From the NCBI GenBank assembly GCA_963750645.1, contig CAVVRO010000008.1, positions 535,594-599,593 of the forward strand: 64,000 nt of DNA, in the 5' to 3' direction. The stretch's first letter is position 1. Every line of letters begins with the position of its first letter. Position numbers and translations under genes: made by a program. Origin of the DNA: an uncultured Microthrixaceae bacterium (GTDB taxonomy: Bacteria; Actinomycetota; Acidimicrobiia; Acidimicrobiales; VFJN01). Of the stretch, positions 16,985-62,045 are shown in pieces. The notes under the pieces were generated by a model. The model saw only the letters and a list, made by a program, of their open reading frames with translations, was not told where the DNA came from and searched no databases.

Positions 16985-17488
16985 ATGACCGCGGACAGTG
17001 ACGGGGAGCAGTCGACGTTCTCGAGCCAGGTCGGTCAACGGCTGCGCTCGGTGCGACGCATCCGTGGCCTGTCCCTCGATGACGTCGAACGGGAGTCCGG
17101 TGGCCGCTGGAGCGCCTCGGCCGTGGGGGCCTACGAGCGGGGCTTCCGCAACCTCAGCCTGCCGCGCCTTCGCGACCTCGCACGCTTCTACGACGTGCCG
17201 ATGGGCGTCCTCCTCGGCGAGGACGACGGGGCCGACGGCAGCCGAGCGCAGGGCCGCCTCGTGCTCGACCTCGTGGCCCTCCAGCAGGTGCCCGAGGCGG
17301 AGGCCGTGCTGCGCTACCTGCGTTCGATCATCCTCGAGCGAGGTGACTACAACGGGCGCGTCCTCTCCGTGCGGCGGGACGACCTGCGGGCGATCTGCTC
17401 CCTGCTCCGCACCGACGAGGCCGCCACCCTGGAGCGGCTGCACCAGTGGGGTGCCCTCGTCGACGGGAGCGGGCCAACCAGTTCGTGA
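16985..17488 (+). CDS. XRE-family helix-turn-helix transcriptional regulator
   Basis: HTH segment [54 protein letters not shown]. Confidence 0.75.
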
Positions 17489-17520: not shown

Positions 17521-18774
17521 GTGGCTCTGGTCGTCCAGAAGTTCGGCGGCACGTCGGTCGCCGACCCCGAGCGCATCCGCGAGGTCGCCGACCACGTCGC
17601 CCGCACGCAAGCGCCGTGGCAACGACGTGGTGCGTGGTCGTCAGCGCCATGGGCAAGGAGACCGACGAGCTGCTGCGCCTCGCCTCCGAGGTGTCCGACG
17701 ACCCGCCCCGGCCGCGAGATGGACATGCTGCATCACGGCCGGCGAGCGCAAGGCCACCGCGCTGCTGTGCATGGCGCTCGCACGACCTCGGCGTCGACGC
17801 CGAGTCGTTCACCGGGCAGCCAGGCGGGGTTCATCACCGACACCACCCACACCAACGCCAAGATCGTCGAGGTGCGGCCGACCGCATCCGCGACGGCCCT
17901 CGACGCCGGGCACGTCCCGGTGGTCGGCGGCTCCCAGGGCGTGTCCGACCGACCGCAACGTCACCTTCCTCGGTCGCGGCGGCTCGGACACCACCGCGGT
18001 CGCGCTGGCCCACGCGCTCGGCGCCGACGTCCTGCGAGCTCTACACCGACGTCTCCGGCGTGTTCACCAGCCGACCCCCGGGTCGTGCCCGACGCCCGCC
18101 GCATGGAGCGCGTCAGCTTCGACGAGCTGCTCGAGATGACGCGCCAACGGCTGCCCGAAGCCGGCCATGCGGTCGGTCGAGTTCGCCCGCACCTACGGGC
18201 GTCGACCTGCACGTCCGCTCAGCGTTCACCTGGGAGCCGGGCACCTGGGTCACGAGGAGGACGACGACATGGAGCAGGCCATCATCTCGGCGGTCGTCCA
18301 CGACACCGACGAGGCCAAGGTCACGGTCGCCGGGGTGCCCGACCAGCCCGGCATCGCCGCCCGCCTGTTCCGGCTCCTCGCCGACGCCGACATCAACGTC
18401 GACATGATCGTGCAGAACACGTCGGAGCACGGCGTGACCGACATCTCCTTCACCGTCCCCCACGACGACCTCGACCGAGCCACGAGATCACCGTCGGCGC
18501 TCGGCCGCGGAGATCGGCGCCACCGGGGTGCACCAGCGACGGCGACATCGCCCGGGTGAGCGTCGTCGGCGCGGGCATGAAGTCGAACCCGGGCGTGGCC
18601 GCCACGGTGTTCGAGACCCTCGCCGCCGCCGGCATCAACATCGAGATGATCTCCACCTCGGCGATCCGGATCAGCTGCGTGGTGCGCCGAGGCCCAGGTC
18701 GAGCAGGCCGTGCAGGCCCTCCACGACGCCTTCGAGCTGAGCGCGTCAAGGGCGGCTCCGCCCCCTTCGCATGA
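17521..18774 (+). pseudogene. ask: aspartokinase (alpha/beta), disrupted by many 1-nt indels (or a sequence-quality artefact)
   Basis: The start [19 protein letters not shown] is intact. Later canonical segments are scattered over all three frames: [99 protein letters not shown] and others. The internal beta-subunit start ATG 18269 ([12 protein letters not shown]) with RBS gaggagga is still visible. The 3' end is approximate. Confidence 0.85.
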
Positions 18775-18825
18775 CCCCCGATTGCGCCGCCATAAGGCTT
18801 TGGGCCTCGTGGAGCGACGCCGTAG

Positions 18826-19889
<1,064 letters not shown>

Positions 19890-29053: not shown

Positions 29054-30221
29054 TCATGTGGCCGGGATCCACGCGCCGTGGAGCCCGTAGGGGATGCGTC
29101 GAGGGATCGCGACGGTGGCGAGCGGCGGGTGGTCGATGGCGGCGGCGTCGAGGACGATCAGGTCGGCCTCATTGCGGTTGTCGTCGTGGGAGAAGCCGAT
29201 GAGCCAGCCGCCGTCTTCGCGGTGGCGACGGGACGGGTCCGGGACGAAGCTGAGCTCGCCGGGGTGACGATCGGGGCCGAGGTCATGGGCGGTCCGGTCG
29301 CCGGTGCGAAGGTCGTGCCGGTACACCTCCGTCCCGCCGCCGGCGGCGACGGCCCACAGGTACGTGGGGACCGAGACGCGGTCACGGTTGGTGGTCCCGA
29401 ACCCTTGCGGCGTGTCGTCGAGGACGCTACGGCGGGCGCCGCCGCCGTCGAAGGTCCATCGGACCAAGGATCGGTCAGTGGCGAGAACGGCCACGTCCCG
29501 GCCGAGGTCGTACGCAGCGACGGCCTCAGTGACGCCGGCGTCGCACCAACGGGGCGGGGTCTGTCCGGTGCGGTCGACGACGCCGACGAACCCTTCGCCG
29601 AGGAGGACGATGCGGTCGCGGGTCAGGAGGAGGCCCTGCAGGGGTCCAGGGGCGTCGGGAACGGGGACGGTGATCCGGGTCTGGCTGTTCGGCGCCACGA
29701 TGTGATGCGCCGGCTCGTCGCCGTAGGAGACGAGGTGGAGCGCACCGGTGTGGGGGTCGAGCTGGGGGTGGGCGCCGATCCCACGACCCCGTCCGGCCAG
29801 GTCGACCCGGACGACGGTGGCGACGTGCTCGTCGAGCTCGTAGGCGAGGGCGCCCGAGCCCAGGGCAAGGGTCCGGCCACCGAACGTCACGACGTTGGTG
29901 GCGACGATGTCGAACGCGGCGGCGGGCGGACCGGGGATCGGGTCGGTCCCGAGATTGCGGGCGACGTTGTCGGTGGTGACCCATCGGCTGCAATACCGGA
30001 CCGCCCGGCCCTCGTGGAGCTCCACAGCGTGGACCATTCCATCGAGGCTCCGGCCAACGGGCGTCGGAGACGGGACGACGGCGTTGGGCCCGATTCGGAC
30101 ATAGCGGCCGGTCAGGGCAGGTGGGAGGGTGCCTTCGACCGTGAGGCCCGTCAGGGTCGTCTCCTCCGCGCCCGGCGCGTGGTTCCTGGTGGGGAGCTGC
30201 GGGTGCCGAGGCGGTGGGCAT
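29054..30221 (-). CDS. carotenoid-oxygenase (CCD/RPE65) family protein, short form; likely +1 frameshift near the start
   Basis: Motifs GRYVRIGPN, DGMVHAVELHEGRAVRY, AHPQLDPHTG and PYGLHGAWIP are present. The conserved frame has no ATG, GTG or TTG after the LuxR stop. ATG 30221 lies in the adjacent frame (MPTASAPAAP) next to a cccc run. Confidence 0.65.
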
Positions 30222-30306
30222 GCCCTCAGCGTCTGCGTAAGGGGCCCGCCTCCGCATCGGGAGGAACCCCTCAGATCGGCTGGATCTCCCGCCTCCGGGT
30301 CTCGGT

Positions 30307-33257
30307 TCAGGCGATCCCGAGGCGCTGGGCGACGGCGGCGGCGTCGACCCGGCTGGTGACGCCGAGCTTGCGGAGGATGTTCGACACGTGCACGCTGGCC
30401 GTCTTCTCCGAGACGAACAGCTGCTCGCCGATCTGTCGGTTGGTCTGCCCGGTGGCGACCAGCGCCAGGACTTCGGCTTCTCGGGCGGTCAGGCCGAGCC
30501 GTTCGATCGACGTGTCGTCGATGGTCACGCGGGTCGGGGCTTCGACGCTGAGCCGGGTGCGGCGTGAGATCGCCTCGGCCTGGGCCGCCACCGCGGCGGC
30601 GCCGAGGTCGATGGCCATGCGGTAGGCGGCCTGCAGCGCTCCGGCGGCAGCGGGCCGTGTCGCCGGCAGAGGCGGCAGCGTCGGCTTCGCGTAGCGTGCG
30701 CCACTGCCATCCACCACCGGTCGCCGAGGTCGCTCCCAACGCTCCACGGCTTCCGCCCAGGCGTCCGGGTCCGGGGCGGTGAGGCGGGTGAGGCTGGCCC
30801 TGGCGTGGGCGAGGTGGGCGACGATGTCGCGGGACATGGCCGGTCCCAGTGCTGTTCTGGTCGTCGACCTGGACCTGGTCGATGCGCTGCCGCAGCAGGC
30901 TGACGGTCGCGTCGACGTCGACCGGCCGGCCCGCAGCGAGGGCATCGAGTGCCTGCTCGACGGCCGCGGCGACGCTGAGCATCGCGAACCGGGCGGACCA
31001 CAGCGTGGCGGTCGCGGCGGCGTGTCTCCCAGCCGTGCTCCGCCGCCGCACCCGCCTCCGCCCAGTTGCCGAGGGCGAGGTGGACGTCGGCGACGGCAGA
31101 GTCGAGGAACGTCTGGTGGAAGCCGTCGGTGGGTCGTGCGGTGGCGTCAGCGAGGAGCTTCGTCGCCCGCTCGGTGTCGCCCCGCCTGGCCGCGAGCATG
31201 GCGCCCGCCCGCGCGACCCGGAAGATCCCGACCGGCAGGGTCTGGTCGGTCGTGTGGCGGGCCAGCGTCGCCTCGGCCTCGGACCAGCGGCCGAGCCGGA
31301 TGAGGCCTTCGGCGGCCAGGGCGTCGAGGTAGCCACCGAAGCTGTGGTCGAGCCCGGCCAGGTGCCCTTCGGCGACCGCGTCGAGGGCGGCGTTCACCGC
31401 CTCCAGGTTGCGGCCGTCGTCGAGGAGCGCGGCGCAGAAGTAGATCGCCGCGAGCGCTCGTGCTTGCGCTGTCGGGGCCGCCGCCATGGCCTCGCGGCAC
31501 AGCTCGACCGCCCTCGCGGGGTCGGCCGACGATGGCTGCGGACGAGGCCGAGCGTGCGGCGGGCCATCGCCCAGGCCAGCGGGATCGTCGGCCGGGCGTT
31601 CTCGACGAGCTCGAAGACGCGCTGCGCACCACTGCTCGGACAGCTCGTAGTGGCCGGCCATGAGCCTCGGCCTGCCCGAGTCCGGCGAACACCCCTGCCG
31701 CGTTCGGGTCGCCGTCGGTCGCCGAGGAGCGCACGCGGCCTGCTCGAACTCGGCTCGGCTCTCCTCGAGGTAGCCCGACGGCCCACAGGTAGCGGCCCAG
31801 GCGCTCGTGCCCGAACGCTTCGCCCTTGCGGAGGCGGCCCGACCTGGAAGGCTGCCTGGCGCGACCTCGCACGGCTCGCTCGTTGCCCGACGGTGGCACG
31901 TGGCGAGCTCGGCGGCCTGCCACAGCCGGTCGACCACGGTCGTCCTGCCCGGCGCTCTCGACCGGCGTCGTCCCAGCAGCTCGAACGCCCGCTCGAGATG
32001 GCGCGAACGCGGCCGCTGGGGCGATCGTCGCTGCGGCGTCGGCGGCGGCGAGCAAGGCGACGAACGCGCCTTCGCGGTCGCCGGCGCGGTCGAGGTGGAA
32101 GGCGAGCTCGCCGGCCCGGTCGGCCCGCGCCGAGCTCGGCGGTGGACTGCTGTTGGAGGGCGTCGGCGACCCGGCGATGGAGGCGGGTTCGCTGCGACGG
32201 GAGCAGGTCGGCGTAGACGACCTCGCCGATGAGGGCGTGACGGAACCGGTAGGCGTCGGTGGCGGCGTCGACCACGACCAGCTGCGCGTCGATCGCGGCG
32301 CGGACGCGCCCGTTCGATGGCCTCGTCGTCGAGGTCGACGATCGCGCGCAGCAGGTCGTGCGTCGGTCGTCACGGCCCGACGACGGCCATGGCACCGAGC
32401 GACCTGGCGGGCCTCGTCGTCGAGGCCGGCGATGTCGGCGGAGATCAGGTCGGACAGGACGGCGGGGATCGCCTCGCCGGCGACGTGGGCGGCGACGAGC
32501 TCCTCGGTGAAGAACGGGTTCCCCTGTCCCCGGGCGAGGATCTCGTCGACGAGATCATGCGGCGCGATGGTCCCGAGCAGCGCCGTCGACGCGGGCGGTC
32601 GACGTCGTCGCGGTCGAGGCCGGACAGGTGGATCCGGTGCACCGCCGGTAGGCGGGTGAGCTCGGCGAGCCGCCGCCGCTGCGACGGGTGCGCTCCGACC
32701 TCGGTCGCCCGGTAGGTGCCGACGAGCACGACCGGCTCGTCGAGCAGGTTCCGGGCCAGGAACTCGAAGAGGTCCCAGGTGACGGCGTCGGCCCAGTGGA
32801 GGTCCTCGATCCCGACGACGACGGCGCCCGTCGGCGCCGAGGTGGCCGACAACGTCGAGGATCGGCGCGAACAGCGCCGCCGGGGCCACGGTCGTCGTCT
32901 CCCCGGGGATCGTGCCCGGGGTCGAGCCAGCGGGCGAGCGGGGCGAGGCGCTCGGACTCGGAGAGCAGGTCGGGGCTGGCTGCGGCGGACCTGGCGGAGC
33001 AGGTCGGCGAGCGGCGCCAGCGGGATGACGTCACCACCGATGGGGCACGCACCGCCCGAGGTACAGGCTCACCCCCGCCCGCTCGGCGGCCTCGGCGATC
33101 AGCGTCGACTTGCCGATCCCGGCGTCGCCGCCGACCAGCAGGATCGACGGGATACCGGCCTGCGTGCGTCCGCGAAGGCCGCTCGAACAGGGCGAGCTCC
33201 TCGCTTCGTCCGACGAAGTTGGGTTCTGGTGGCGATCGGGCACGGCGATCTCATCAT
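30307..33257 (-). pseudogene. LAL-type (large ATP-binding LuxR family) regulator, multiply frameshifted
   Basis: The C-terminal LuxR HTH is intact (LTAREAEVLALVATGQTNRQIGEQLFVSEKTASVHVSNILRKLGV). Walker A LLVGGDAGIGKSTL lies near 33.1 kb. Segments VVVGIEDLHWADAVTWDLFEFLARNL, GNPFFTEELV, YRFRHALIGEVVYADLLPSQRTRLHRRVADAL and TPR-like parts are spread over all three frames from about 30.65 kb upward. Confidence 0.8.
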
Positions 33258-33402
33258 GACGCCGCCACCGCAGCCGGTGACGGGGTGCCGCACATGCGGC
33301 CCGGATCTGAGGGGTCATGCCCGATGTGCGCGGCAGGGGCCTTAGCCGAGACGGTGGACCCAGGAAGCCACCCACGCCTCCCGTAGGCACGAAGGAGCAG
33401 TC

Positions 33403-34750
33403 ATGCACGGTCGTCCCGTCCACCAAGTCCTCGGCGAGACCACGGCGAGCCACCCGAACCGGTGGCGCATCCTCGGCGTGCTCGTGCTCGCCCTGCTCGT
33501 CACCTCCATCGACCACACCATCATCAACGTCGCCCTGCCCCGGCTGGTCGGCGACCTCGGCGCCAGCTCGGCCCAGCTGCAGTGGATCGTCGCCGCCTAC
33601 ACCATCGTGTTCGCCGGGCTGCTGCTCACCGCCGGCAGCCTCGGCGACCGCTTCGGCCGCCGGCACGCCCTGCTCGCCGGCCTGGCCACGTTCCTCGGCC
33701 GGCTCCGATCGTCGCCGCCACTCGCCGGCTCGACGACGGCGCTCATCGCCGGCCGCTGCGTCATGGGCGTCGGCGGCGCGCTGATCATGCCGACGACGCT
33801 GTCGATCCTCGTCAACGTGTTCGGCGATCCCCGCGAGCGGGCCAAGGCGATCGCCGGCTGGACCGCCGCGAGCGGCGCCGGCATCGCGCTCGGACCGATC
33901 GTCGGCGGCGCGCTGATGCGCAGCTTCTCGTGGTCGTCGGTGTTCTGGATCAACGTGCCGCTGCTCGTCGCCGCGCTTCGTCGGGGCGCTGCACCTCGTC
34001 CCCGACTCCCGCGACCCGCACGCGACCCGGCTCGATCCCGATCGGCGCCTGCCTGTCGATCGCCGCGATCAGCACGCTCGTCTACGCCATCATCCAGGCA
34101 CCCGAGCAGCGGCTGGACGTCGACCGCCGTCGCTGTCAACTTCGCGGTCGGGGCCGCGATCGCGGTCGCTGTTCGTCGGCTGGGAGATGCGCCGCGACGA
34201 CCCGATGCTCGACATGCGGCTGTTCCGCAACCGCAGCTTCTCCGCCGGCAGCATCGCCCTCGCCCTGCTGTTCTTCGCCATGGCCGGCACCGTGTTCCTG
34301 CAGGCGCAGTACCTGCAGTTCGTGCTCGGCTACACCCCGCTCGCCGCCGGGTTCGCCCTCGTCCCGGCCGCGATCGGGATGCTGCTCGGCACCGGCGCCG
34401 GCGCTCACCTCGCCGCCAGGCACGGCGGGCGCATCGCCGTGACCACCGGCACGCTGATCGCCGCCGGCGGCGTCGCCGTGCAGGCCGCGCTTCATCGACG
34501 GCACGTCGTACGCCCCGACCGGTGTCGGGCTGCTGCTGTTCGGCCTCGGCGCCGGCATCGCGATGCCCGCCGCGACCGACCTGATCATGGCGACGCTTCC
34601 GCCGGCACGGGCCGGTGTCGGCTCGCCGTCAACGACACCGTCCGCGAGCTCGGCGGCGCGCTCGGCGTCGCGGTCATCGGCAGCGTCGCCGCCAGCCAGC
34701 TACGCCTCGCACGTCATCAGCGGATCGGTGCTCAGCAGTGTTCGCATCGT
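33403..34750 (+). pseudogene. MFS transporter (DHA2/EmrB-QacA type), frameshifted; 3' end approximate
   Basis: The N-terminal half is in one frame (RWRILGVLVLALLVTSIDHTIINVALPRL...LGDRFGRR...). The second half is in other frames (DMRLFRNRSFSAGSIALALLFFAMAGTVFLQAQYLQFVLGYTPLAAGFALVP and VNDTVRELGGALGVAVIGSV). Confidence 0.75.
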
Positions 34751-35770
34751 CGTGGGCGCTGCTCGCCTTCCTCACCGGCCACTGGACGGATCAGGCGCAG
34801 CGCTGGGCCGCCGTGCCGGCAACCGTGATGGCCATCGGCGCCGTGACCATCCTCGCGCGTCGCCCCGACCGGCAACGAGGTCGGATGGGTGTGGCCGCCG
34901 GCGATCCTTGCGCTCGCCGCCTGGATGACCGTCCAGTCGCGACGCGCATCTGCGGAGCCGGGCCCGCACCCTCGTCCTCTACCCGGTGTTCGCGGCGCTG
35001 GCGTTCTCCGCCCTGGGCGGCGCGTACGAGACCTACCGCGAGACCAGCGACACATCCGTCGTCGGCGATGCCCGGTCGGCTCATCGACGTCGGCGGTCAC
35101 CAGCTGCACATCAGCTGCACCGGCTCCGGCAGCCCGACCGTGGTCCTCGAGCCCGGTATGGGCGAGCCGTCACCGGTCATGGCCGGTTGGATCGCCCCGG
35201 GCGTTGCGACGACGACCAGGGTCTGCGTCTACGACCGAGCCGGACGAGGATGGAGCGAGTCGGCATCCGCCCCGCAGGACGGGGAGCAGGTCGCCACCGA
35301 CCTGCACACCCTGCTGTCACGTGCAGGCGAGCCCGGCCCGTACGTGCTCGCAGGTCACTCGGCCGGGGGGATCTACGTCCTCAACTTCGCCAAGCTCTTC
35401 CCGCAGGACGTGGCCGGGCGTGGTGCTGCTCGACTCGATGCACCCCGAGCAGTACACGCGCATGGCCTCCTGGCCCGGCTTCTACGAGATGTTCCGACGC
35501 ATGTCGGCCGTGTCGCCCTCGCTCGCACGGCTCGGGATCGGCCGCCTGATCTACGGCGGTGCGTACAGCGAGCTGCCGGCGGCCCAACGCGACCAGGAGC
35601 GCGCCTTCCTCTCGACGCCACGGCACAGCCGCAGCGTCCGAGACGAGTTCAGCAAGATCCGCATGGCGATGGGCCAGGCCGCCAAGCTGCACACGCTTGG
35701 GCGACGTTCCACTCGCCGTTCTGTTCCTACGCACGGTTCGGCACCGGAACCAGCGACGCGCCGATCCGCG
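34741..35770 (+). pseudogene. membrane-anchored alpha/beta hydrolase, frameshifted and 3'-truncated; coordinates approximate
   Basis: TM segments lie in three frames, followed by MPGRLIDVGGHQLHISCTGSGSPTVVLEPGMGE and the nucleophile elbow LAGHSAGG. VVLLDSMHPEQY...AAKLHTLG is in another frame. The sequence breaks off after LGDVPLAVL. Confidence 0.65.
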
Positions 35771-35779
35771 ACGCAGACC

Positions 35780-36298
35780 TTCGAGACACAAGCATCGGAC
35801 CTCCACGCCGTTCTTGACGCGGCAGGAGAACCGGCCCCGTACGTCGTGGTCGGCCACTCCTTCGGCGGCGCCGAAGCGGTGACGTTCACGTCGCAGTACC
35901 CCGACGACGTGGTCGGGCTCATGCTCGTCGACGCGAGCCCGGCCACGTGGCCGACCACCGTGTGCTCGGTCCCCGCCTACGAAGAGCTGTGCGCTGTCAT
36001 GCACGACTCGACGCTGGACCCGGAACGACTCGACGCGATCCCCGCGTTTGCCGACGTCGCAGCCATCAGGTCGCTGGGTGATCTCCCGATGACCGTGATG
36101 AGCGCGGCGCACCGGACCGATCCTGCTCTCATGCAGCATGAGCTCACGCGGCTCGACGCCGTCTGGGCAGCGGGTGTCAGAACCTGGGCGTCGTTGTCAC
36201 CAGCTTCCACCGTGGTCTCCGTGCAGGACACCGGCCACCACATCCAGCTCGACCAGCCGGCCCTGGTCGTCGAGGAGATCGGGAAGCTCCTGCCTTGA
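35780..36298 (+). pseudogene. alpha/beta hydrolase paralogue lacking its N-terminal ~70 residues
   Basis: It begins at ASDLHAVLDAAGEPAPYVVVGHSFGG, which parallels VATDLHTLLSRAGEPGPYVLAGHSAGG of the upstream copy. It continues in frame to LGDLPMTVMSAAH...DTGHHIQLDQP and a stop at 36298. Confidence 0.6.
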
Positions 36299-36332
36299 CG
36301 TTGATCACCGTTGAGAGCACACGGCTGACCGT

Positions 36333-36371
36333 TGGTCGGAGATCTGAACTCCCGACCTCTGCGTCCCGAAC
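36333..36371 (-). repeat. partial duplicate of the tRNA-Pro 3' half (att-like direct repeat)
   Basis: tggtcgg + agatctgaactcccgacctctgcgtcccgaac matches tRNA positions 39512-39518 and 39526-39557. There is one mismatch and a 7-nt gap. Identity stops in the anticodon loop. Confidence 0.8.
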
Positions 36372-36498
36372 ACGATCCTGGCGACGACAGGCCCGGCCAG
36401 CAGTGGCTTCGCGAATCGGGCGGGATCCTCGCGAGATCGGCTCTGCCTCAGCTGGCGTCGACGAGCTGGTGTCGCGGATAGAAGCCCTCGCCGCTGAA

Positions 36499-36987
36499 TC
36501 AAGTCTCGATGACAGACTCGTCGAACAACAGGAGCTCCTCCTCGTCTGGAGGTTGAAAGACCGTTGCCCACTGTTCGAAGTGAGCCCGTGTCATAGGCGA
36601 GGCGGTCCATTCGCCCGAGGCCTGGCGGCGCTGAGCTCGCTCGATGAGCTCCTCCAGAGACGCGTCGAGGTAGTGCAGTTCGACTCCCGCGCCCAGCGCT
36701 CGGGCTCCACGTCGCTTCTCATCCCGTTCGACCCGCGCCCAGTGGCCCCACTCCAAGATGACGCTCTGACCCTGCGCGAGGAGCTCCTGGGCAAGGGCCC
36801 ACAGCTGCCGTTCGACGCGGACTCGGAGCTCGTCGTCCCACACGTCGAGACCCAGCTCAGTCGTCCATTGATCCTTGTCCAACCTGATCGCTGGAATCTT
36901 GGGGGCGAGCCGGCGAGCGAGCGTCGTCTTGCCCGACGCTGGAAGCCCACAGATCAGCACCAGCCGCGTCGATGAGACCTCGTTCAT
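36499..36987 (-). CDS. P-loop kinase / AAA_33-like ATP-binding protein
   Basis: ATG 36987 gives MNEVSSTRLVLICGLPASGKTTLARRL, which contains a Walker A motif. The product is 162 aa. Confidence 0.7.
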   Translation of the reverse strand: MNEVSSTRLVLICGLPASGKTTLARRLAPKIPAIRLDKDQWTTELGLDVWDDELRVRVERQLWALAQELLAQGQSVILEWGHWARVERDEKRRGARALGAGVELHYLDASLEELIERAQRRQASGEWTASPMTRAHFEQWATVFQPPDEEELLLFDESVIET

Positions 36988-37167
36988 GGAGACTCTCGGT
37001 ACTCGTCCGTCACGGTCACAGCCTGCACGACCCACCTCTCCGGCCCCGGCGCAGCGCGCCGGGTTGCCATCAGGCCGGCGATAGGGGCGGTCAGCCGGGG
37101 CTGGACAATCGGCCGACGACGACGTGAACCACTTGGCACTCCTCCGGCGATGAACGGCGGCTCCCGG

Positions 37168-37632
37168 CTAGCTCAGCGGGCGCCAGAGCACAGCATCCCT
37201 CGCCAGCGACGTCTTGGGACGCGCCACCTCGTAGCCGCAACGTTCGTAGAAGCGGGCCGCTTCGCCGGTATGCAGCCAGAGCTCGGTCGCGCCTGCCTCC
37301 CGTGCGCGGTCGGCGGTCACGCCGAGGAGTCGGCGACCCAGGCCGAGGTCACGCGCTGCGCCGAGCACGTAGACGCCGGAGAGCCAGGGACCCCGGTCGG
37401 CGAACTCGACGTCGACGTCGTCGGTGCAGACACTGGCCGAGCCGACCGGTTCGTCACCCCAGCGGGCCACGAGCGTGAACGGGATCCCGGTCTCACCCGT
37501 CCGGGACCGCAGCCGCTTGCGCCACTCTTCCCGCTCCGCCTCGGTGCCGAGACTCCATTCCCGCCAGTGCCAATGGAGCACCGTTTCGAGGACGGGATCA
37601 GCAGCGCTCATTATGTCGACGTGCACCTCCAC
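37168..37632 (-). CDS. GNAT-family N-acetyltransferase
   Basis: The acetyl-CoA pocket motif GVYVLGAARDLGLGRRLL and the C-terminal ARFYERCGYE are present. Confidence 0.75.
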   Translation of the reverse strand: MEVHVDIMSAADPVLETVLHWHWREWSLGTEAEREEWRKRLRSRTGETGIPFTLVARWGDEPVGSASVCTDDVDVEFADRGPWLSGVYVLGAARDLGLGRRLLGVTADRAREAGATELWLHTGEAARFYERCGYEVARPKTSLARDAVLWRPLS

Positions 37633-38015
37633 CGCCGCATCGTCCCATGCCGGTCGAAGTCGTGACGGCTCAGTCAGCTCTCCATCAGGTCGACCAGGTA
37701 GCCGAGGAACCTCAGCTCGTCGGTCTCGCGCTCCCAGCCGTCAGCACTCGGCTTGCTCTCGACTCGGGCACTGCCAGAGACCGGGTAGAGCGCATCGCCC
37801 GTGCCGCTGCCATGGAGCACGTCGGAATCCACCGACAGTCCGGTCCGATCTCAGCTCTGCCGCCCCGGCACTGAGGCCCGGGCCGATAGCTGAGAGGTGC
37901 GCCGATAAGCCAAGCCGACCCAGCACGCCGCGAGGTCAAGTAAGCACGCCGCCACGATGATCACGTCGCCTGCACGATCGCCCGACACGGCGCGAACCGT
38001 ACTCAGAGAATCCCC

Positions 38016-38046
38016 TTGCACCTCACGCGACGTGACCTCTTACGGT
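38016..38046 (+). promoter_or_regulatory. MerR-type promoter: -35 TTGCAC, 19-nt spacer with a central palindrome, -10 TACGGT
   Basis: TTGCAC lies at 38016-38021. The 19-nt spacer contains tcacg-cga-cgtga (38023-38035). TACGGT lies at 38041-38046. The GTG start at 38054 is 7 nt after the -10 element, which implies a leaderless transcript. Confidence 0.55.
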
Positions 38047-38053
38047 TACGAGC

Positions 38054-39241
38054 GTGGCGCGGGAGTGGACGGTCGGTGAGCTGGCGCATCAAGCCAGCGT
38101 GTCGGTGAGAACACTGCACCACTACGACCAGATCGGGCTCTTGAGTCCGACGCGCAGTGCCGCTGGCCATCGCCGCTACACGGAGCCCGACGTTGCCCGC
38201 CTCACCCAAGTCGTCGCGCTACGCAGCGTCGGGCTCTCCCTCGGCGAGATCCGACGCTGTCTCGACAGCGGCGAAGCCCTGACCGCCACGCTCACCCGGC
38301 AGCTGCGCGACCTCGACCTGCGCGTCGCGCAGACGTCAGCGCTCCGGGACCGTCTCGCCACCGTCGTGGCCCAGCTCCAGAGCGGCCGCGACCTCGACAG
38401 CTACGACCTGATGGCCTTGATCGGAGACACGAAGATGATGGCAGAAGGCAAGACCAAGATCGTCGAAGAAGCGGGCAATGGTGAAGTGCTTGTCCGCAGC
38501 AAGGACGACATCACCGCCGGCGACGGAGCCAAACACGATGTGCTCGATGGCAAGGCGGCCGCATCCACGCGGACGACCTGCAACATCTTCCAGCTCCTCG
38601 AGCGCAACGGCGTGCGCACCCACTTCGTGGATCGTGTCGACGATGTCACCTTCCGGGCGCGCAACGTCGAGATGATCCCACTGGAGCTTGTCGCACGCCG
38701 GTACGCCTCCGGCAGCCTTCGAGACCGCTTCCCTGACCTGCCGGACGGCGCAGTCTTCGAAGAGCTCATGTTCGAGGTCTTCGAGAAGGACGATGCCAAT
38801 CACGACCCGCTGCTGGACTTCGACTTCGAAGCAGGCGTTCTGCGACGGCACGTGCCCAACAAGAACGCGGCAGAAGCGATCGGCCCGGACGCCAAGGCCG
38901 GCGCCCTCATCACTGAAGAACCGCTAGCAGAGAGCCGTTACGCCGACGTCTCGCCGGAGCTCATCGCACGCCTTCGAAGCCGCACCGTCTCGGCGTTCGA
39001 GGTCATCGAGGCGGCGTGGAAGCAGCACGGCGGCGTCTACATCGACTTCAAGATCGAATGCGGATTCGATCGCGAGACAGGCGACCTACTGGTGGCTGAC
39101 GTCATCGACAGCGACTCCGGTCGCTTGCGCTTCGGCGACGTCGACATGTCCAAGCAGTCGTATCGCGACGGCACGGCCACCTTGCCGGAGATCAAGAAGA
39201 AGTTCGACGAGGTTGCAGCCCTTACGGACCGATTCGTCTGA
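38054..39241 (+). CDS. MerR-family DNA-binding domain fused in frame to a SAICAR-synthetase (PurC)-like domain
   Basis: The N-terminus WTVGELAHQASVSVRTLHHYDQIGLLSPTRSAAGHRRYTEPDV plus a coiled coil spans about 125 aa. It is followed by MMAEGKTKIVEEAGNGEVLVRSKDDITAGDGAKHDVLDGKAAASTRTTCNIFQLLERNGVRTHF...DSDSGRLRF, which matches the PurC pattern. No stop separates the two parts. Confidence 0.7.
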   Translation: MAREWTVGELAHQASVSVRTLHHYDQIGLLSPTRSAAGHRRYTEPDVARLTQVVALRSVGLSLGEIRRCLDSGEALTATLTRQLRDLDLRVAQTSALRDRLATVVAQLQSGRDLDSYDLMALIGDTKMMAEGKTKIVEEAGNGEVLVRSKDDITAGDGAKHDVLDGKAAASTRTTCNIFQLLERNGVRTHFVDRVDDVTFRARNVEMIPLELVARRYASGSLRDRFPDLPDGAVFEELMFEVFEKDDANHDPLLDFDFEAGVLRRHVPNKNAAEAIGPDAKAGALITEEPLAESRYADVSPELIARLRSRTVSAFEVIEAAWKQHGGVYIDFKIECGFDRETGDLLVADVIDSDSGRLRFGDVDMSKQSYRDGTATLPEIKKKFDEVAALTDRFV

Positions 39242-39511: not shown

Positions 39512-39588
39512 TGGTCGGGTGGGGGAGATTTGAACTCCCGACCTCTGCGTCCCGAACGCAGCGCTCTGCCAAGCTGAGCCACCACCCG
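39512..39588 (-). tRNA. tRNA-Pro (anticodon CGG), CCA encoded
   Basis: Manual cloverleaf: acceptor CGGGTGG/CCACCCG, D arm GCTC-AGCTTGGCA-GAGC, anticodon arm CTGCG-TTCGGGA-CGCAG, variable loop AGGTC, T arm GGGAG-TTCAAAT-CTCCC, then A-CCA. Confidence 0.9.
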
Positions 39589-60970: not shown

Positions 60971-61039
60971 TGCGCGCTGCGAGCGTGAGCCGGCAACCCC
61001 CCCATCCGCTCACCCCTCCGTGGAGGAAAGGAACCCCTG

Positions 61040-62045
61040 ATGGCGTACAAGGCTGAGTACATCTGGGTCGACGGCACCTCGCCGACGGCCAAGCTGCGCT
61101 CGAAGACGAAGATCATGGAGCATGGCAAGACGGACCTCCCGATCTGGGGCTTCGACGGCTCGTCGACGAACCAGGCTCCCGGCGACAAGTCGGACTGCGT
61201 GCTCCAGCCGGTCTTCAGCTGCCCGGACCCGATCCGTGGGGGCGACAACGTGCTGGTGATGTGCGAGGTGCTGTACATCGACATGACGCCCCACGAGACG
61301 AACACCCGCCGCAAGTGTGCCGAGATCGCCGAGAAGTACGCCGACCAGGAGCCGATCTTCGGCATCGAGCAGGAGTACACCTTCTTCAAGGACGGACGGC
61401 CGTACGGCTTCCCGTTCGGCGGCTTCCCCGCGCCCCAGGGCGGCTACTACTGCGGCGTCGGCGCCGACGAGGTGTACGGCCGCGACGTCGTCGAGGCCCA
61501 CCTCGACGCCTGCCTCACGGCCGGCCTGCACATCTCCGGCATCAACGCCGAGGTCATGCCCGGGCAGTGGGAGTTCCAGGTCGGTCCGGTCGCCGCGCCC
61601 CAGGTGGCCGACGAGCTCTGGCTCGCCCGGTGGCTCCTCTACCGGATCGCGGAGGACTTCGAGGTGTCGGCCACCCTCGACCCGAAGCCCGTCAAGGGCG
61701 ACTGGAACGGCGCCGGCGCCCACACCAACTTCTCGACCAACGCGATGCGCGAGGGCTACGACGCCATCATCACGGCGTGCGAGGCACTCGCCCCGCGGCT
61801 TGCACGACCACGTCGCCGTCTACGGCGCCGGGATCGAGGAGCGCCTCACGGGCCTCCACGAGACGGCCCCGTGGACGGAGTACAGCTACGGCGTCTCCGA
61901 CCGCGGCGCCTCGGTTCGCATCCCGTGGCAGGTCGAGGTCGACAAGAAGGGCTACATCGAGGACCGCCGGCCCAACGCCAACTGCGACCCGTACCAGACC
62001 ACCCACATCCTCATCGAGACCATCTGCAGCGCCCTGGCGGAGTAG
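61040..62045 (+). pseudogene. glnII: glutamine synthetase type II with one frameshift near 61.79-61.80 kb (possibly a sequence error)
   Basis: MAYKAEYIWVDGT...GDWNGAGAHTNFST...ITACEALAPR is in one frame. LHDHVAVYGAGIEERLTGLHETAPW...RGASVRIPW...DRRPNANCDPY continues in the +1 frame to the stop at 62045. Confidence 0.85.

Follow-up and report, generated by a model that had tools for sequence, protein, structure and literature searches.

The 64,000-nt stretch analysed here (positions 535,594 to 599,593 of contig CAVVRO010000008.1, assembly GCA_963750645.1, from an uncultured Microthrixaceae bacterium), henceforth referred to as the window, contains a LAL-type regulator gene, a divergent MFS transporter gene, parts of two alpha/beta hydrolase genes and the genes for aspartate kinase (ask) and aspartate-semialdehyde dehydrogenase (asd), all of which are interrupted by shifts of reading frame. 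These frameshifts most probably (probability of roughly 0.78) represent a consensus artefact, in which two strain variants were collapsed and both alleles were written at each single-nucleotide polymorphism (SNP). The evidence lies in the nearly exclusive occurrence of extra bases, in their choice of base and in their position relative to the codons that they interrupt.

Extra bases in two patches of the window

Coding phase was followed over the 64 kb by a plot of GC content at third codon positions and by Viterbi frame segmentation using six coding phases and a non-coding state. It was disordered in only two stretches, ~17.4–20.3 kb and ~30.2–35.8 kb, within both of which the phase hops every 50–300 nt. 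Outside the two patches, gene-sized segments in one phase, with stop codons at their ends, extend over nearly all of the window. A tblastn search with orthologues was rejected as a means of locating the breaks, as the hits were smeared over the frames in DNA of 72% GC (70–72% for the window), and was replaced by a purpose-written frameshift-aware protein-to-DNA aligner run against intact orthologues. For ask and asd, the unbroken L031 genes (409 and 339 aa, respectively) served as reference. The alignments revealed 77 frame-shifting events over the two patches, distributed among the following features.

17608–19685 (+): patch 1, used for comparison; 28 events in 2.1 kb
17521–~18763 (+): aspartate kinase gene, ask; 15 events; 85% identity to orthologue
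18836–19889 (+): aspartate-semialdehyde dehydrogenase gene, asd; 13 events; 80% identity to orthologue
30206–35773: patch 2; 49 events in 5.6 kb (one every ~114 nt), almost all of them one added base
29054–30255 (−): RPE65/carotenoid-oxygenase-like gene (PF03055, E=5e-51); 1 event, at the 5' end
30307–33258 (−): LAL-type regulator gene with AAA_16 P-loop, putatively TPR-like middle and GerE/LuxR helix-turn-helix (HTH); 31 events
33403–34706 (+): MFS transporter gene, codons 1–433 only; 10 events between 33697 and 34697
34709–35722 (+): hydrolase-1, a membrane-anchored alpha/beta hydrolase gene, codons ~56–396 of 465; 6 events between 34734 and 35696
35720–36298 (+): hydrolase-2, an alpha/beta hydrolase gene, codons ~93–304 of 304, N-terminal part absent; 1 event, at 35773

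Extra bases account for 75 of the 77 events (69 of +1 and 6 of +2) and missing bases for the remaining two. When the nucleotides were aligned to the orthologous loci, insertions private to the window numbered 64 of one nt and 7 of two nt, beside four one-nt deletions; in the alignment of the LAL gene neither orthologue, L001 or L003, had an insertion of its own. For repair, the inserted columns private to the window were removed and its few private deletions were filled from the orthologue; open homologous frames were thereby regained for LAL, asd, MFS and hydrolase-1. In ask the nucleotide-alignment repair was mis-framed in the middle of the gene, where four events were missed, and conclusions on ask were drawn from the frameshift-aware alignment only. 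No in-frame stop was present in ~2,800 frame-corrected codons from all affected genes.

A first-pass annotation, made by inspection of the raw sequence, had described patch 2 as an indel-dense block between 30650 and 35770 whose peptide segments looked undecayed. The absence of in-frame stops and the 70–85% identity of LAL, ask, asd, MFS and hydrolase-1 to their orthologues agree with the undecayed appearance, and the block is dense in events as described; given 75 insertions among 77 events, indel is an imprecise term for them. Its upper end at 35.77 kb and the clean HTH also stand, but the lower limit does not, as the patch starts at 30206 with the event in the RPE65-like gene. Alignment to the orthologous LAL, MFS and hydrolase loci, which had been proposed as a check, restored open reading frames in LAL, MFS and hydrolase-1 and favoured an artefact over true pseudogenes.

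The LAL gene is the most heavily affected. Its 31 breaks (28 of +1 and 3 of +2) fall between 33172 and 30649, and its terminal 340 nt (30310–30649), which encode the HTH, are free of breaks and lie in one frame in the raw sequence. Three-frame translation of 30.25–33.3 kb located all of the LAL peptides quoted in the annotation, scattered over the three minus frames as had been reported; the accompanying estimate of at least a dozen switches was correct in finding many and was an undercount. After removal of the window-private inserted columns and filling of a single window-private 1-nt deletion with the orthologue base, the gene reads as 960 open codons to a natural stop, within the 950–1000 aa of its relatives. 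The frame-corrected protein is 85% identical to P0001 over 958 aa. AAA_16 (PF13191) was matched in residues 5–169 (E=6e-22), with the Walker A motif GDAGIGKST present, and the LuxR/GerE HTH (PF00196) in residues 900–954 (E=8e-21), while a match to TPR_2 was weak (19.9 bits against a 27-bit cut-off). A stitched LAL query retrieved ~960-aa AAA_16/TPR/GerE proteins, the best of them 81% identical over the full length, and the named sources of the LAL relatives are Ilumatobacteraceae/Acidimicrobiales metagenome-assembled genomes (MAGs). The protein resembles LAL/MalT-like regulators in its AAA_16 P-loop, GerE HTH, length of ~960 aa and divergent MFS exporter gene, and its long middle may be of their helical/TPR-like kind. 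In the present case the divergent MFS gene and a hydrolase gene are conserved in relatives, the subfamily, one of Acidimicrobiia, is known only from MAGs and no biosynthetic cluster is evident around the gene.

The ask and asd genes carry the same insertion-only signature as patch 2, and the BldD-like gene upstream of ask (16987–17485) is clean right up to the patch boundary. The annotation had proposed a common technical cause for the two patches, and the 28 ask–asd events, with their shared signature, support this. In a separate observation, three entries of the protein database (P0121–P0123, 709–754 aa) contain both aspartate-kinase and semialdehyde-dehydrogenase domains, and may be ask–asd read-through or fusion calls from other assemblies.

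Base choice and codon phase of the extra bases

The inserted bases in the nucleotide alignment comprise 27 G, 25 C, 7 T and 5 A, which is near the local composition. An inserted base was identical to a neighbour in 14 of 64 cases, against an expected fraction of ~0.54 for random insertion (p=2e-8). Placement by the frameshift-aware aligner likewise gave 8 same-base events in 69, against an expected fraction of 0.34 (p=2e-5). Homopolymer-type errors and simple random insertion are excluded, since only 14 of 64 insertions match a neighbour.

For the analysis of codon phase, the frameshift-aware alignment supplied the frames and the nucleotide alignment the positions, yielding 56 frame-changing single insertions. 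Of these, 46 adjoin a wobble base and 36 form different but synonymous wobble doublets, i.e. the codon remains synonymous whichever of the two bases is read in third position (GGC/GGG, GTC/GTG, CTC/CTG, GCC/GCG, ACC/ACG and others). Six wobble doublets are non-synonymous (D/E twice, I/M twice, C/W and Y/stop), and nine events lie between codon positions 1 and 2, where they can be read as Ala/Thr (three times), Val/Ile, Gln/Lys and others.

Random insertions were planted and carried through the full pipeline as a null. Synonymous but different doublets make up 64% of the observed events compared to 29–31% of the planted insertions (p=5e-8 to 3e-7), and same-base insertions 7% compared to 25–29% (p=6e-5 to 6e-4). 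With frameshift-aware placement only, synonymous, non-synonymous and same-base events numbered 50, 11 and 8, against null proportions of 52, 14 and 34% (p=4e-4 for synonymous and 2e-5 for same-base events); once same-base events are set aside, this placement alone does not separate allele doubling from an error that avoids neighbouring bases. The two could be compared in the combined placement, conditional on an inserted base unlike both neighbours. Synonymous wobble doublets then numbered 33 of 44 against 45% expected (p=5e-5), and events between positions 1 and 2 numbered 5 of 44 against 36% expected (p=2e-4). When the flanking 1–2 nt were also matched, the expected numbers were 23.5–26.1 wobble doublets against 33 observed (p=0.002–0.007) and 12.9 events between positions 1 and 2 against 5 observed (p=0.0008–0.0025).

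Read as SNPs, the doublets are ~75% synonymous, compared to 27% for random substitutions in the affected genes, and most of the remainder are conservative changes (D/E, I/M, A/T, V/I). The placement of the insertions is that of natural, selection-filtered polymorphism rather than of mutation or sequencing, since neither of those processes can know which sites are synonymous. The excess of synonymous changes over the 27% expected under neutrality further indicates that the genes are under purifying selection.

This placement bears directly on the possibility that the breaks are generic sequencing or consensus noise, i.e. read errors that survived in low-coverage or unpolished long-read stretches. 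The patchy distribution, with its sharp change to clean sequence, would suit such noise, as would the ~12–22% of events that are same-base and the probable origin of the assembly as a long-read MAG, frameshift errors being known in long-read soil assemblies. Frameshift-fragmented genes in long-read assemblies and MAGs have been measured by IDEEL-type tests (PMC9262707, PMC13087279; proovframe 10.1101/2021.08.23.457338). The present locus is like those cases in that conserved open reading frames of a public assembly are cut by 1-nt indels with undecayed peptides, and those cases also include MAGs from complex soils with microdiversity. Classical long-read errors, however, are homopolymer-length miscalls, mostly deletions, and are spread genome-wide, whereas the events reported here are insertions that avoid homopolymers, favour wobble positions and are confined to two intervals. 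Noise should also have left deletions and substitutions, yet 75 insertions stand against 2 deletions with no in-frame stops. The indels of nanopore, 454 and Ion Torrent reads centre on homopolymers, which the events avoid (p=2e-8), and a process blind to coding cannot follow codon phase. Noise of this kind is therefore considered an unlikely source of the events. Two specific technical causes were also rejected. A flow-order effect of 454 sequencing is incompatible, by reasoning only, with the T[G]C events (extra base in square brackets) under a TACG flow order, and a ~1-Mb soil contig is not a 454 product; a systematic error at methylation motifs is contradicted by the same contexts being clean across the other 56 kb.

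The same evidence argues against true pseudogenes, in which the regulator, exporter, hydrolases and ask–asd would have been inactivated by dozens of real insertions. The annotation had held genuine decay of the regulator, exporter and hydrolase to be more plausible than decay of ask–asd. This was not upheld, because the event anatomy, insertion-only and adjacent to wobble bases, is identical in ask and asd, which are essential genes. Loci undergoing reductive evolution do show several frame disruptions in adjacent genes, and two deletions of ~0.5 kb in the transporter–hydrolase block, described below, would fit; these deletions truncate MFS, hydrolase-1 and hydrolase-2 and could be genuine, and a tRNA gene and a stretch of lower GC are situated close to the block. 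Real decay, in contrast, brings insertions mixed with deletions, premature stops and a relaxed dN/dS, and leaves essential genes untouched. The frameshifted genes match it in none of these respects: they are free of stop codons and deletions, amino-acid change is not in excess, and the insertions fall at synonymous positions, to which mutation is blind. We know of no precedent for ~30 independent +1 insertions in one otherwise undamaged gene. Pseudogenization of the block is accordingly regarded as very improbable, and real decay, if it occurred anywhere, would be confined to the two junction deletions. A still more remote idea, with a negligible probability, is that the extra bases are physically present and ask, asd and LAL are nevertheless expressed. 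It would require the systematic skipping or deletion of one nucleotide at ~80 sites, and to our knowledge neither mRNA deletion editing nor pervasive +1 ribosomal frameshifting occurs at such a scale in bacteria.

Probable doubling of alleles in a collapsed consensus

The source of the window is almost certainly a long-read MAG. From the composition and placement of the doublets we infer both the two-strain origin and the particular software step that would have produced them. Reads from 17.6–19.7 and 30.2–35.8 kb would derive from two co-occurring variants, ~1% or more apart, which may be strains or a recombined tract. At many of the differing sites a consensus or polishing step would keep both alleles in succession instead of choosing between them, such that each SNP would become a 1-nt insertion and hence a frameshift. 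Such doubling would be expected where a mismatch is handled as an insertion plus a deletion, or where a likelihood model rates two deletions as cheaper than one rare G<->C substitution. If so, ask, asd and LAL would really be intact, and the MFS and hydrolase genes probably are as well.

The kinds of bases that are paired lend this mechanism some detail. G/C pairs constitute 34 of 42 wobble doublets, compared to 57% of the wobble differences between species, and transitions are under-represented (11, against 36 G/C). This combination fits a likelihood-based polisher that would resolve transitions, which are common read errors, as substitutions and would double the rarer transversions, producing the excess of G/C.

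Related sequences provide a setting for such an artefact. Public genomes of the clade are mostly MAGs, many with Flye-style contig names, and the relatives are largely soil MAGs assembled from nanopore reads with metaFlye and Medaka, in which microdiversity is recognised (PMC12313526). More frameshift errors have been reported for Oxford Nanopore data in soil assemblies (PMC13087279). The same anatomy was found in other Flye-style contigs. The asd gene of L033 (L033:7200-8500) contains CGG[C] and is called as a 117-aa fragment, and the MFS gene of L001 (L001:8200-9950) has four breaks in 400 nt, including GCC[G] and G[C]TC, next to clean genes. Within the window, a single isolated event was detected outside the patches.

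61799–61802 (+): CGG CTT[G] CAC (Leu CTT/CTG)

It splits a GSII-type glutamine synthetase gene (~60992–62045, +) at 61802 into ...ITACEALAPRL and HDHVAVYGAGIEERLTG....

A comparable corruption is documented for collapsed diploid assemblies, in which allelic differences were placed in tandem and false duplications flanked gaps (Korlach et al. 2017, PMC5632298). As in that case, both haplotypes would be present in succession in one linear consensus, with corrupted gene models as the result. The diploid cases involve tens to thousands of bases, whereas here single nucleotides are concerned, one at roughly each SNP.

Several points weigh against allele doubling. Some 10–20% of the events are same-base or imply a stop or an odd 'allele' (e.g. 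TAC[G]), unlike simple doubling. The codon-phase signal falls to a moderate level (p ~1e-3) once sequence context is conditioned on, so part of it could come from an insertion error specific to certain contexts. No strain sequence above 95% identity was found in the JGI contigs (best match to the repaired LAL, 86%) or the GTDB representatives searched, the alleles thus being deduced rather than observed. A literature search turned up no paper in which Flye, Medaka or another tool is described as doubling alleles at single bases. Finally, allele doubling leaves the two ~0.5-kb junction deletions unexplained.

A related artefact would arise during merging, if overlapping contigs or bins of different strains had been joined and their overlaps (2.1 and 5.6 kb) written as a union; an aligner would encode mismatches as gap pairs and the merger would favour bases over gaps. 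Merging predicts insertion-only events that are never same-base, sharp bounds and the signature of natural polymorphism. It should double all types of SNP equally, however, and the under-representation of transitions (11 vs 36 G/C) is at odds with this. The isolated event at 61802 and the mini-patches in other contigs are hard to square with contig overlaps, and a contig of ~975 kb suggests direct long-read assembly. A merge is thus judged improbable, marginally more so than generic read noise, and doubling within a single consensus step is preferred.

In practical terms, the deposited sequence of the regulator, transporter, hydrolases, ask and asd is best regarded as a corrupted record of intact genes, and not as one of pseudogenes or of a decaying cluster. 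Gene callers fragment the affected loci, which distorts completeness and pseudogene statistics and introduces fragments into protein databases. The signature (insertion-only, homopolymer-avoiding, made of synonymous wobble doublets and rich in G/C) is easy to detect and to correct automatically. It marks strain-variable intervals, in which both alleles of each SNP are in principle preserved. As two or more further public long-read contigs from related MAGs show it as well, a widely used assembly or polishing route may generate it systematically. The doublet signature offers a compact, testable marker of consensus errors that arise where strains are collapsed in a long-read MAG.

Junctions in the transporter–hydrolase block and neighbouring genes

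Two junctions interrupt the transporter–hydrolase block in patch 2, and the hydrolase reported as a single gene in the annotation proved to be pieces of two.

34706–34709 (+): junction J1, ...AGCTACGCC|TC|GCACGTCATC..., joining MFS codon ~433 to hydrolase-1 codon ~56–60
35713–35722 (+): junction J2, ...CCACTCGCCGTTCTGTTCCTACGC..., joining hydrolase-1 codon ~396 to hydrolase-2 codon ~93

The other gene identities in that annotation were confirmed by Pfam (AAA_16 and GerE LuxR, MFS_1, Abhydrolase_1, RPE65 and p450). The repaired MFS gene is open to codon 432, and its alignment to L003 stops at codon ~433, i.e. at J1. Identity to the orthologue is 70% overall and ~85% over the codons before J1. 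The MFS_1 domain is complete (PF07690, E=4e-52, profile positions 1–346 of 347, residues 28–420), and the C-terminal ~150 residues of the 556–586-aa orthologues, comprising the last transmembrane segment and a His-rich tail, are missing; the MFS proteins of relatives are DHA2-like with 14 transmembrane segments. Hydrolase-1 (74% identity to orthologue; PF00561, E=7e-13; nucleophile elbow AGHSAGG) is missing ~70 residues at the C-terminus, where the catalytic His presumably lies. Hydrolase-2 (60% identity; PF00561, E=9e-14; nucleophile elbow VGHSFGG) has its single break at 35773 (GAC[G]) and is clean afterwards. As hydrolase-1 ends at 396/465 and hydrolase-2 begins at ~93/304, neither contains a complete Abhydrolase_1 domain.

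Compared to L003, ~630 nt are absent at J1, where the frame is continuous after removal of nearby doublets, and ~510 nt at J2 (~35720), which shows a possible GTYCTG microhomology and is in frame when GT[T]C is taken as a Val doublet. Both breakpoints are sharp, with microhomology of at most a few nt. Just downstream of J1, at 34726–34760, the nucleotide alignment to L001 placed three more extra bases in ~35 nt, which are net in frame and were not counted; this is the densest cluster of events in patch 2.

The junctions could be real deletions in one co-occurring strain and could equally stem from an aberrant backbone read. A combined account, in which the frameshifts are artefactual but the J1 and J2 deletions genuinely exist in at least one co-occurring strain (an MFS::hydrolase-1::hydrolase-2 remnant or fusion) with the other strain intact, is tentative, at somewhat less than an even chance. 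It accords with the sharp breakpoints, with the in-frame state of both junctions after doublet removal (a chance of 1/9) and with the high event density around J1, as expected from co-aligned reads with and without the deletion. A 0.5-kb deletion in a backbone read would moreover be beyond repair by polishers, and the patch would, by inference, be a strain-variable locus. On the other side, the doublet SNPs in MFS and hydrolase-1 number 10 synonymous to 2–3 non-synonymous, which argues against long neutral evolution of a remnant. With the C-terminal ~70 residues of hydrolase-1 and the N-terminal strands of hydrolase-2 missing, the fused hydrolase, judged from its sequence, would not be a functional enzyme, and as such it cannot be a selected product. 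The close relatives L003 and L038 have all three genes complete, and a chimeric or aberrant backbone read would look alike.

The gene order, with MFS followed by alpha/beta hydrolase on one side and LAL followed by RPE65 divergently on the other, is conserved in at least two distinct relatives. L003 and the independent L038, which are 99–100% identical, encode an MFS of 586 aa, a hydrolase-2 of 304 aa, a LAL of 963 aa and an RPE65 of 400 aa. Hydrolase-1 is split in both as 79 + 399 aa (L003:3318-4711, L038:6701-8091) and is a single 465-aa gene in L001; the split reflects a genuine frameshift in that lineage or else its use of a different start.

The RPE65-like gene adjoining LAL had been described as an intact carotenoid-oxygenase-like neighbour, which does not hold, as it carries one event at 30206. 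Its body (29057–30200) is in a single frame and 72% identical to the orthologue, and its first ~16 codons (MRRRAPYADAEGMPTAS), start included, are shifted by the G/C doublet, which lies at codon position 1 and can be read as GAC (Asp, as in L001) or CAC (His). A scan of GTDB representative genomes for RPE65 found distant homologues only (<=45%) and none that was close. The proposal that the block is accessory DNA was neither confirmed nor refuted by this result and the order conserved in at least two relatives. The flanking P450 was confirmed as a member of the p450 family.

Downstream of hydrolase-2, 36294–38113 is of lower GC (0.65) with no clear coding phase. It is followed by a gene (38054–39241, +) for a 395-aa protein in which a MerR-type HTH N-terminus (VGELAHQASVSVRTLHHYDQIGLL) is fused to a PurC/SAICAR-synthase body; the exact sequence occurs in an 82-member cluster annotated as PurC. 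A tRNA-Pro(CGG) gene lies just downstream of it, on the minus strand at 39512–39588.

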